DNA of 32,000 nucleotides from Sinorhizobium meliloti (GTDB lineage: Bacteria > Pseudomonadota > Alphaproteobacteria > Rhizobiales > Rhizobiaceae), in NCBI RefSeq assembly GCF_017876815.1, contig NZ_JAGIOS010000001.1, positions 2,820,001-2,852,000 on the forward strand, in the 5' to 3' direction. Shown here piece by piece: positions 22,908 to 23,711 of the stretch (position 1 is the stretch's first letter; the number at the start of each line of letters is the position of its first letter). Position numbers and translations under genes: made by a program. The notes beneath the pieces were generated by a model, which saw nothing but the letters and a program-made list of their open reading frames with translations, did not search any database and was not told the DNA's origin.

Positions 22908-23711
22908 TTACTTGTCGCCCTTGGCTTTTCCGCCCTTGTCCTTCCCGCCTTTGCCTCGGCCGTCTTGATCGCCCTTATTGTTGTCCTGGTGGCCCTTACC
23001 GCCGTCCTGGTTACCCTTGTCGTTGTCCTGGTGGCCCTTGCCGCCGTCCTGGTTGCCCTTGTCGTTGTCCTGGTGGCCCTTGCCCCCGTCCTGGCCACCC
23101 TTTCCGTTATCCTGGTGGCCTTTGCCGCCGTCCTGGTTACCCTTGCCATTATCCTGGTCACCCTTGCCGGGATCCTGACCACCGCCGCCGTTGTCGCCGC
23201 CGCCGCCGCCACCGCCGTTGTCGCCGCCGCCGCCGCCACCGCCGTTGTCGCCGCCGCCGCCGCCACCGCCGTTGTCGCCGCCGCCGCCACCGCCGTTGTC
23301 GCCGCCGCCGCCACCGCCATTGTCGCCACCGCCGCCACCGCCACCGCCGCCGCCGCCGCCGCCACCGCCGCCGCCAACACCGCCGCCGCCCTTGCTGCCG
23401 CCGCCTTTGCCGCCACCTCTCATCGGACCGCTTGCCGTGGAGTCGCTGCGATCGTGGCGTCCGGTGCCGGCGCCGATAGATGCCGTCGTCAGGGGCGGAC
23501 ACATCTTAATCTGCGCGGGGGTGAGAATCTTCGTTCGGTTTATTGCAACGCAACATGCCGCGAAGTTGTCTTCCGAAAGGGGACTGCACTGACGGGCAGT
23601 CATGCGCTGGCGCTGTACTGCATCCGCATCCGTCGTAACGATTACAGCTCCAATCGTGGCCGTGGATAGTATGAAGAATGTCCGAAATATCGATCTATTA
23701 ATTCTTTTCAT
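22908..23711 (-). CDS. Secreted low-complexity protein: Sec signal peptide, small Cys-containing domain, poly-Gly/DN(G)n block, and (GKGHQDN/DKGNQDG)n repeats
   Basis: AGGAG RBS lies 7 nt before ATG 23711. Signal peptide MKRINRSIFRTFFILSTATIGAVIVTTDADA. Then ...CSPLSEDNFAACCVAINR...MCPPL. Then 17 consecutive Gly, six DN(G)4-7 units and about ten 7-aa K/G/H/Q/D/N units. TAA stop at 22908-22910. The plus-strand ORFs across this region are repeat artefacts. Confidence 0.7.
   Translation of the reverse strand: MKRINRSIFRTFFILSTATIGAVIVTTDADAVQRQRMTARQCSPLSEDNFAACCVAINRTKILTPAQIKMCPPLTTASIGAGTGRHDRSDSTASGPMRGGGKGGGSKGGGGVGGGGGGGGGGGGGGGGGDNGGGGGGDNGGGGGGDNGGGGGGGDNGGGGGGGDNGGGGGGGDNGGGGQDPGKGDQDNGKGNQDGGKGHQDNGKGGQDGGKGHQDNDKGNQDGGKGHQDNDKGNQDGGKGHQDNNKGDQDGRGKGGKDKGGKAKGDK
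22971..23400. repeat. Coding tandem repeats: five 42-bp units (each two 21-bp halves) at 22971-23180, then 24/27-bp GCC-rich units and a pure (GCC)n-type tract at 23181-23400
   Basis: Read directly. GCCCTTGTCGTTGTCCTGGTGGCCCTTGCCGCCGTCCTGGTT-type units start at 22971, 23013, 23055, 23097 and 23139. GTTGTC(GCC)n(ACCGCC) units follow. Confidence 0.85.

Follow-up and report, generated by a model that had tools for sequence, protein, structure and literature searches.

What is the role of an exported protein in which a short conserved head carries a long glycine-rich tail that differs in length from strain to strain? This question is raised by a minus-strand gene of Sinorhizobium meliloti that encodes a protein of 267 aa and lies in a 32,000-nt stretch of chromosomal DNA, here called the window. 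The gene is the orthologue of SMc04357 of strain Rm1021, and that name is used below. We found that the N-terminus of SMc04357 defines a new, uncurated family of exported proteins, and that the gene is divergently paired with SMc04352, which encodes a cysteine protease of the bacterial transglutaminase-like type (BTLCP), over an intergenic region bound by CtrA. This conserved pairing is the strongest functional clue at the locus, and it had been overlooked in the initial annotation, a description of the window made from its letters alone. We put the chances at about even that SMc04357 is a substrate or direct functional partner of SMc04352, most likely cut at a conserved motif.

The gene and its product

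The products of the neighbouring genes are exact matches to named S. meliloti proteins, which identified the window as S. meliloti chromosomal DNA, and residues 1-103 of the target are 100% identical to S. meliloti proteins. In Rm1021, SMc04357 is listed as a 'putative glycine-rich protein' (PMC4433202 Table S2; PMC3616915 Table S15); this locus tag and annotation are what was already known about the gene, and the initial annotation had missed them. The exact window protein was absent from a collection of 15 billion proteins.

The ribosome-binding site and the Sec signal peptide that had been proposed were both found. The AGGAG stands 7 nt from the ATG, and its GGAG core was invariant in 14 Sinorhizobium intergenic regions. 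Read by eye, the N-terminus, with MKRINRSIFRTFFILSTATIGAVIVTTDADA before and VQ after the predicted cleavage point, has a basic n-region, a 16-residue hydrophobic core and an A-D-A cleavage motif; an equivalent hydrophobic segment ending in small residues was found in all family members, and the signal peptide is conserved across genera. The short Cys-containing domain was recovered as well, with the four Cys of the protein at residues 42, 53, 54 and 71. In the mature form, 97 of the 237 residues are Gly (41%), and the grand average of hydropathy (GRAVY) is -1.34. The positions of all the elements are gathered in Table 1.

Table 1. Elements of the SMc04357-SMc04352 locus, in window coordinates
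Element	Position	Strand	Basis
Glycine-rich protein coding sequence, complete, 267 aa plus stop	22908..23711	-	Open reading frame and translation; orthologue of Rm1021 SMc04357
Signal peptide, residues 1-30, predicted signal peptidase I site after A-D-A	23622..23711	-	Read from sequence
48-residue four-Cys domain with CPPLTTASI motif, residues 31-78	23478..23621	-	Family profile HMM, alignment, dN/dS, AlphaFold2
Gly-rich array: GGGKGGGSKGGGGV, G17 run (23375..23325), six DN(G)4-7 units; 24/27-bp repeats and (GGC/GGT)n tract	23178..23414	-	Tandem Repeats Finder rows 23185-23370, 23198-23405
Ten QDxxKGx heptads, 21/42-bp repeats	22947..23177	-	Tandem Repeats Finder rows 22972-23169 (period 42), 22983-23169 (period 21)
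Lys-rich C-terminal tail GKDKGGKAKGDK, conserved in the meliloti/medicae clade	22911..22946	-	Sequence and orthologue comparison
Shine-Dalgarno AGGAG, 7 nt before ATG	23719..23723	-	Sequence; invariant core in Sinorhizobium
Transcription start site, 46 nt upstream of ATG	23757	-	Transferred from Rm1021 SMc_TSS06652 at 2236756, exact sequence match
CtrA-type box TAACAATTTGTAAAT (23794..23780) abutting -35-like TTGACC (23779..23774)	23774..23794	-	Schlueter et al. prediction and alignment
Shared divergent intergenic region, 170 bp, 35% GC vs ~62% for the window	23712..23881	.	Sequence
BTLCP / Peptidase_C93 transglutaminase-like cysteine protease SMc04352, 196 aa, signal peptide, intact Cys-His-Asp triad	23882..24472	+	Pfam PF06035, E = 6.9e-52
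GC-rich hairpin just past the stop codon, with an 8 bp stem and without a U tract	22885..22904	-	RNA fold -18.7 kcal/mol, z = -2.1
Stronger hairpin, then CCCUUCUU; probably the gene's terminator	22741..22770	-	RNA fold -24.8 kcal/mol, z = -2.8

SMc04357 is a real gene, and the original observation holds: its transcription start site has been mapped in Rm1021, its N-terminal part is under purifying selection, and it is conserved across genera. The gene is that of the minus strand; the long plus-strand open reading frames (ORFs) over the repeats are artefacts of composition. An ORF that is a mere by-product of GC-rich repeats, or a decaying gene, would fit with two observations, namely that such repeats give open frames in all six phases and that the K101 lineage has a 1-bp deletion in a C5 run within the Cys domain (CTCACCCCCGCG to CTCA-CCCCGCG, at about 4800 of locus L002 and equivalent to about 23520 of the window; the K101, C101 and M103 records gave matches alike in identity and score, and K101 was the one read). 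However, the frame is held in every allele, and the deletion falls in a homopolymer and leaves 245 codons of open frame downstream; this points to an error in sequencing, or to an event or inactivation that is very recent. In view of the mapped start site, the purifying selection and the cross-genus conservation, a non-functional ORF is hardly credible.

A conserved cysteine module

The first 78 residues of SMc04357 are under strong purifying selection. When compared with ten Sinorhizobium/Ensifer species, the ratio of nonsynonymous to synonymous substitution rates (dN/dS) was 0.04-0.16 over codons 1-76, with synonymous sites near saturation, and 0.04-0.12 in the Cys-domain region (residues 31-78). 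A word-indexed profile search with a 31-sequence alignment of the domain returned one protein only, and it was an exhaustive HMMER search with the N-terminal alignment, over 1.84 billion representative proteins, that revealed the family: 45 clusters share the module at E <= 1e-3. A search for relatives of the Cys domain had been called for in the initial annotation, and this wider family is its result. Each of the 45 clusters shows the same layout, with a signal peptide, the module directly after it, and a low-complexity tail that is mostly rich in Gly, Asp, Ser and Asn. The named members belong to Sinorhizobium/Ensifer, Mesorhizobium and Nitratireductor, and others come from soil metagenomes. 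In the window, the profile hidden Markov model (HMM) of the family matched 23615..23475 and no other place.

In 68 non-redundant sequences, the first part of the module has the consensus R-P-x-[ML]-T-A-x-Q-C-[QS]-P-L-[TS]-x-x-N-[YF]-x-x-C-C-[VI]-A-x-N-R-x-x-[IL]-L, and this is followed by [TS]-x-x-[QE]-[IL]-x-[QM]-C-P-P-[LI]-[TS]-T-[AS]-x-[IV]. The four Cys (module positions C11, C22, C23 and C40) are invariant in this set, together with N18, A25 and N27; P41, P42 and T45 are conserved in at least 92% of the sequences, position 10 is Gln in 92%, and conservation collapses past position 48. A second motif, NNGxGNGG[ED], is found at the C-terminus of many members, including those of S. terangae, S. 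saheli and S. psoraleae; S. kostiense ends in a variant, NNGHGNGGSDG, and the meliloti/medicae clade is without the motif and has the Lys-rich tail instead.

The initial annotation had named no characterised family with this architecture, and in agreement no Pfam or NCBIfam model was found for the proteins scanned. The window protein matched no Pfam-A or NCBIfam family at E <= 0.01, and nine other inputs (eight distant members, the isolated domain, and the S. terangae orthologue) matched none at E <= 1, with the sole exception of a chance match to the signal-peptide region (E = 0.036). Modelling of the domain alignment with AlphaFold2 gave a mean predicted local distance difference test score (pLDDT) of 82.5, indicating a confident small helical fold with four short helices; the last of them spans residues 34-39, and the CPP turn and the TTAS segment come after it. 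A Foldseek comparison of this model with the PDB returned nothing better than E = 6.5. The four Cys most likely form two periplasmic disulfides that lock this small helical domain.

Divergent pairing with the cysteine protease SMc04352

Annotations of the protease gene opposite SMc04357 differ: one calls the product a 'signal peptide protein', another a transglutaminase-like cysteine peptidase. Its product aligned to Legionella LapG (4FGO) across GDCEDFA, GH and LD, and scored 28.5 bits with the NCBIfam model CystProtLapG, for which the cutoff is 320 bits; the partner subfamily as a whole matched LapG at only E = 5e-5. The possibility that it is SMc00998, the S. meliloti orthologue of HvyA, was ruled out, as the published SMc00998 primers were absent from the window and the gene is SMc04352.

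A divergent BTLCP gene 170-200 bp upstream was present at 20 of 20 Sinorhizobium loci (the window, Ak57, K101 and 17 Sinorhizobium/Ensifer species), a count to be read with the whole neighbourhood being syntenic in this genus. Outside the genus, the pairing was found in 22 of 27 loci, that is, in 7 of 8 distant relatives, in 14 of 18 metagenome loci, which were collected with a narrower profile alignment, and in Nitratireductor, where the locus was reached from the protease side. At the distant paired loci, all other neighbours differ (Mesorhizobium L020/L021, metagenomic L023/L024 and L025, a Mesorhizobium metagenome-assembled genome at L026/L027, and L028, L029 and L030). The partner proteases, which show 51-66% identity to each other and, in the other genera, to the window enzyme, make up one subfamily, spread over Sinorhizobium, Mesorhizobium, Aminobacter and Nitratireductor; in several, the signal peptide ends in a lipoprotein-type Cys. 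Beyond SMc04352 lie SMc04351 and SMc04350, which are MacB-like and MacA-like. These are syntenic in Sinorhizobium but missing beside the module in other genera, and were therefore not counted in the system.

Further arrangements were seen at single loci. At L029 (CP159955.1), two tandem Cys-domain paralogues (2444-3134 and 3501-3896) stand beside one BTLCP gene, and for the first of them the gene caller had chosen a wrong frame, giving a 130-aa 'AAAA...' product. The same locus has a neighbouring type I secretion system (T1SS) ABC/HlyD pair of the AprE type, and the orthologous locus of Aminobacter sp. P9b (L049) has the BTLCP and the T1SS genes and no Cys-domain gene. On a chromid or plasmid of S. 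fredii (L051; CP183944.1, 3001-6621), a paralogous BTLCP, with 76% identity to the window enzyme, is placed directly upstream of ABC2_membrane (KpsM-like) and Capsule_synth genes, with no Cys-domain partner, an arrangement that recalls HvyA in a capsule locus.

The shared control region

The intergenic region between the two genes is about 98% identical in K101, against 90% for the surrounding DNA. Across 14 Sinorhizobium species it contains two invariant blocks, GATTA-N-TTGATTA near the protease gene and ACTAAYAWTTYGTAAMTTGACC, the 3' part of which is the -35-like TTGACC. Schlueter et al. (PMC3616915) predicted the CtrA-type box upstream of this hexamer to be a CtrA site, and it lies 23 nt upstream of the transcription start site; a second conserved box, GATTAAGCCATGGTTGATAAC, was found at 23845..23825. 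In other genera, boxes like TTAACAAATTGTWAY or of the type TTAACAAATTGT[TA]A are present at -77 to -80 from the start codon (L023, L025, L026, L029 and L030) and at -91 in L020. A strict scan for TTAA-N7-TTAA gave only 7-of-8 matches and no perfect site, and the conserved box is clear only from the alignment. As a scan with the sigma-70 consensus found no promoter, the S. meliloti start-site data were used instead.

In the RNA-seq map of Schlueter et al., the gene has an mRNA start site, SMc_TSS06652 at 2236756, and a second, 'leaderless' one at the ATG (PMC3616915 Table S15), and its microarray signal in culture was moderate, with log2 values of about 8-10.6 (PMC4433202 Table S2). Moreover, the ChIP-seq data of Pini et al. 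for CtrA include a peak at 2236639 of Rm1021, in the interval from SMc04352 to SMc04357 (PMC4433202 Table S4); it maps to about 23874 of the window. In our literature search, which turned up no expression data under water deficit or osmotic stress, SMc04357 was named in no main text, and it had no entry in the supplements of the ribosome profiling (Ribo-seq) paper that were examined.

A proposed protease-substrate module

The BTLCPs with a known substrate, LapG and DvhG, are Ca-dependent periplasmic proteases that dock on a folded N-terminal module and its 'targeting helix', and cut shortly after a Pro-containing turn, at [T/A/P]AAG (PMC13090378). The LapG-LapA and DvhG-DvhA pairs resemble the pair described here in that a BTLCP stands beside a protein with an N-terminal module, a helix, a Pro turn, a small-residue motif and a long repetitive region. 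Because SMc04357 shares this layout (module, helix, CPP turn, exposed motif and expendable region), we propose that it is a dedicated BTLCP substrate.

SMc04357 would then be a Sec-exported envelope protein of two parts, the conserved N-terminal module and a disordered, hydrophilic Gly-rich tail, and the near-invariant C-P-P-[LI]-[TS]-T-[AS]-x-[IV] segment after the last helix would serve as the recognition or cleavage element. SMc04352 would recognise the folded module and cut in or beside CPPLTTA, parting module from tail, with both genes forming a two-gene module that shares a short AT-rich control region occupied by CtrA. The tail sequence would be rebuilt in each lineage by in-frame repeat slippage, only its general character being kept. 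Such a system would amount to a Lap-like device of anchor, cleavage site and released polymer, with a small Sec substrate, and with a transcriptional (cell-cycle) input in place of LapD and cyclic di-GMP. This complete picture, a CtrA-controlled module in which an orphan BTLCP cuts a disulfide-locked handle at CPPLTTA and so releases or destroys a hypervariable Gly-rich polymer, is a tentative one, suggested by analogy, to which we give distinctly less than even chances.

Several findings weigh against this view. The LapG consensus [T/A/P]AAG is lacking, as module position 46 is Ala in 55% and Ser in 29% of the sequences and position 47 is L, T, A or S, with Ala in 14%; a di-alanine is thus present only in a minority of the family. 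Five family loci have no BTLCP gene nearby, one being L022, with an insertion sequence (IS)-like ORF upstream, and the other four metagenomic; in addition, an Aminobacter genome has the orthologous BTLCP at an L029-type locus and no Cys-domain gene. Divergent genes may be co-regulated without acting on each other. Upon CtrA depletion, SMc04357 shifted by at most log2 -1.0, with an adjusted p of 0.09 (PMC4433202), and the ChIP peak of the pair has no entry under 'cell-cycle phase' or 'microarray' (PMC4433202 Table S4). CtrA occupancy is therefore established, and regulation by CtrA is not.

The pairing and the co-regulation evidence apply equally to a different relation between the two proteins, in which the Cys module at the N-terminus would not be cut but would regulate or inhibit the BTLCP by sitting in its active-site cleft, with the tail as a tether or degradation handle. 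Orphan BTLCPs lack LapD, so that a small disulfide-locked periplasmic protein could restrain a protease of this kind, and no LapD-type GGDEF/EAL protein was found in Pfam scans of the main window ORFs, some small ORFs being left out (the families recognised were MacA, MacB, TetR, IlvC, nuclease, APH and others); furthermore, the conserved part is small, compact and Cys-rich, like many protease inhibitors. However, inhibitor and immunity genes are usually co-directional with that of the enzyme, and conservation here does not stop at the last Cys but continues through a linear, exposed motif of the kind typical for cleavage or recognition sites. The long, costly and hypervariable tail is hard to explain in an inhibitor, and the Aminobacter BTLCP occurs without a Cys-domain gene. 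We regard inhibition as improbable, and less likely than cleavage of SMc04357 as a substrate.

The proposed substrate differs from the LapA type in several respects. Proteins of the SMc04357 family are small (154-748 aa) and have a Sec signal peptide, not a C-terminal T1SS signal, and SMc04357 lacks a beta-rich retention domain, repeats-in-toxin (RTX) or Ig-like repeats and the [T/A/P]AAG di-alanine. In agreement, none of the marks of a giant T1SS adhesin was found in the window protein, which at 267 aa combines an N-terminal Sec-type signal peptide with a helical 48-aa module and has no Pfam domains, and its DN(G)4-7 units have no hydrophobic residue and gave no Pfam HemolysinCabind match, so that they are not the Ca2+-binding RTX nonapeptide GGxGxDxUx. 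One trait of Lap-type systems is present, namely a cognate BTLCP encoded with the candidate substrate (PF06035, divergent and 170 bp away). Without T1SS features, [T/A/P]AAG or LapD, SMc04357 is not to be filed as a Lap-type substrate; SMc04352 is only distantly related to LapG, and cleavage of SMc04357 is a proposal made by analogy.

Another parallel is HvyA of Caulobacter crescentus and its S. meliloti orthologue SMc00998, which is regulated by CtrA and MucR (PMC4241560). Like SMc04352, these are alphaproteobacterial periplasmic BTLCPs with CtrA binding at the promoter and no LapD, and their direct target has not been identified (PMC4241560; PMC4433202). On the other hand, SMc04352 is a paralogue of SMc00998, the published tables, unlike for SMc00998, do not give its pair as cell-cycle phased or CtrA-dependent (PMC4433202), and no adjacent Cys-domain gene has been reported for HvyA.

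BTLCPs are widespread in Alphaproteobacteria, and substrates are known only for the LapG/LapD adhesin-release system. HvyA, for instance, blocks capsulation in Caulobacter and has no identified target. SMc04357, a conserved and tightly linked small partner, offers a directly testable candidate. If cleavage were borne out, the family would be the first candidate natural substrate class for the LapD-less alphaproteobacterial BTLCPs, the group that includes HvyA, and BTLCP proteolysis would not be confined to giant T1SS adhesins. The protein family and its two-gene module with an orphan BTLCP are new, and the theme of a protease encoded with its cognate substrate is already known.

Repeat structure and variation of the tail

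The repeat elements described by the initial annotation were counted as exactly 17 consecutive Gly (residues 113-129), six DN(G)4-7 units (residues 130-178) and ten heptads from residue 179. Its statement that about 180 residues consist of G, D, N, K, Q and H only was nearly right in composition, as 161 residues are of these six kinds and S, V, P, R and A occur once each; the tract is, however, of about 166 residues, not 180. The tandem repeats of 21/42 and 24/27 bp were likewise found, and 'near-perfect' was a somewhat generous wording for them: Tandem Repeats Finder gave 4.7 copies at 87% match for period 42, 8.9 at 72% for period 21, 7.2 at 91% for period 27 and 8.4 at 87% for period 24, a range of 72-91%.

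Length variation between strains had been predicted from these repeats, and a comparison of copy numbers showed it, with S. meliloti alleles of 154-301 aa. Rm1021 has an allele of 233 aa with a 26-Gly run and one DN(G)4 unit, and Ak57 one of 301 aa with 16 DN(G)n units and 4 heptads, against G17, six DN(G)n units and ten heptads in the 267 aa of the window; the shortest alleles, of 154, 163 and 174 aa, come from short-read assemblies and may be collapsed. Among the alleles, the Gly run ranges from 4 to 26, the DN(G)n count from 0 to 16 and the heptad count from 4 to 10, and the DN(G)n and heptad arrays vary independently. All complete alleles are in frame, and however much the arrays differ in length, the frame stays open through to the conserved C-terminus. 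The periods listed by Tandem Repeats Finder (12, 15, 21, 24, 27, 42, 51, 54 and 84) are each divisible by 3, so slippage alters the length of the protein and causes no on/off switching; neither the unit whose length is not a multiple of 3 nor the homopolymer expected of a phase-variable contingency locus was seen among these periods.

In other species the orthologues measure 254-748 aa, an almost five-fold range within one genus. Ensifer sp. IC4062 (254 aa) has KGKEKAGG repeats, S. medicae and S. psoraleae have proteins of 255 and 299 aa, and that of S. kostiense (404 aa) is almost only G and S. S. terangae (532 aa) has about 40 DN(G)n units of the (DNGGGGG)n type followed by KDKAGGKG repeats, and S. 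saheli (748 aa) about 45 GGSGGGDD units followed by GSKGDDH repeats. The family is an example of extreme low-complexity evolution that is constrained in composition only; at some metagenome loci, poly-Gly reaches about 50 residues. From this comparison, the tail appears to be selected only for its Gly-rich, hydrophilic and presumably disordered character, and a spacer, brush or gel-like envelope polymer would fit better than a ligand-binding site.

The initial annotation had also proposed a hydrophilin-like role, and a stand-alone protectant or matrix protein, retaining water or binding Ca2+, metals or polysaccharides, with the BTLCP as a neighbour through shared regulation only, has to be weighed against the substrate proposal. 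Hydrophilins, reportedly described as a physico-chemical class by Garay-Arroyo et al. in 2000, are cytoplasmic or diverse in location and have no Cys domain in common, and their defining trait is that water deficit induces them. SMc04357 resembles these and the late embryogenesis abundant (LEA)-like proteins in its very high hydrophilicity and its Gly content above 6%, which is likeness to a class and not to a homologous family. The physical part of the suggestion thus stood, since Gly is at 41%, the GRAVY is negative as given above and the hydrophilicity index exceeds 1; it is a description, not a mechanism. Many tails are strongly acidic and rich in Gly and Asp, and some distant members are richer in His (16% in P0051 and 24% in P0064). 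However, the mature isoelectric point (pI) of the complete Sinorhizobium/Ensifer proteins runs from 4.1 to 10.0, with 0-7% Gln and 0-3% His in the tail, S. kostiense makes do with G and S, and Q, H and K can each be absent. As tail composition and charge are not conserved, the idea of metal or polyanion binding through His, Asp and Lys as a conserved function was not supported by the comparison, and the metal- and polyanion-binding ideas are weakened in general. A free-standing protectant also leaves unexplained the Cys module, which is the part under selection, and the pairing with one BTLCP subfamily that persists where all other neighbours differ. We consider this role rather unlikely, and hold to the substrate proposal.

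A role for the Gln and Lys of the tail can be imagined as well. Loricrin and involucrin are transglutaminase substrates with Gly loops and Q/K repeats. SMc04357 recalls them in its poly-Gly tracts, its regularly spaced Q and K (one of each per S. meliloti heptad) and the location of its gene next to that of a transglutaminase-fold enzyme, so that the neighbouring BTLCP might cross-link heptad Gln and Lys into a network; the BTLCPs share the Cys-His-Asp triad of transglutaminases (PMC4241560), and Gln at module position 10 is conserved as noted. There is, however, no homology, and Q and K are not conserved in the orthologue tails: Gln is missing or nearly so from many of them, with 0% in those of L010, L017, P0046, P0074 and P0076, and Lys plus Arg is 0% in that of P0050. 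The characterised BTLCPs are all proteases. Q-K cross-linking was thus rejected as a mechanism at the family level, and we hold it to be very unlikely for SMc04357, for which proteolysis by SMc04352 is the activity we propose.

The repeats also bear on how the gene appears in databases. At 10 of 17 species-level loci the sequence stops at a contig edge within the Gly repeats, and many or most database proteins for this gene are flagged 'partial'; (GGC/GGT)n repeats break short-read assemblies, and this is probably why the family has no curated model. The G17 of the window is modest for the family, as uninterrupted poly-Gly runs of about 30-50 residues were seen in metagenome loci L031, L036, L037, L046 and L047, together with (GD)n, (GDD)n and (GA)n arrays. 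The coding strand over 22959-23414 is extremely G-rich, with (GGC)n, and would be prone to G-quadruplex or R-loop formation and to slippage; the plus-strand GC skew over 23001-24000 is -0.145.

Other observations in the window

Downstream of SMc04357, on the same strand (21849-22607), lies a gene of the thermonuclease (SNase) family whose product has an N-terminal transmembrane segment and a linker rich in Lys, Pro and Ala. It is annotated with 231 or 252 aa depending on the strain and is syntenic with the pair in Sinorhizobium only; the protein had no Pfam match at E <= 0.01, and its name comes from database annotations.

On the plus strand, a gene for a major facilitator superfamily (MFS) transporter (18589-20104) has one extra T at 19428 when compared with Ak57 (CACCCGATGAAGAG vs CACCCGA-GAAGAG), and this splits the transporter at about codon 280. 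The 723-aa ORF at 18589-20760 is accordingly a frame-fusion of the N-terminal half of the transporter with the downstream Asp/Glu racemase. The split is either a pseudogene in the window strain or a sequencing error in the window or the Ak57 record.

At the left edge of the window (57-3873, plus strand), an ORF for an AAA_16 ATPase (867 aa) overlaps one with a YcaO cyclodehydratase domain (586 aa; PF02624, E = 1e-47) by about 550 nt, so at least one of the start codons must be wrong. This edge is possibly a locus for a ribosomally synthesised and post-translationally modified peptide (RiPP), or a YcaO locus.

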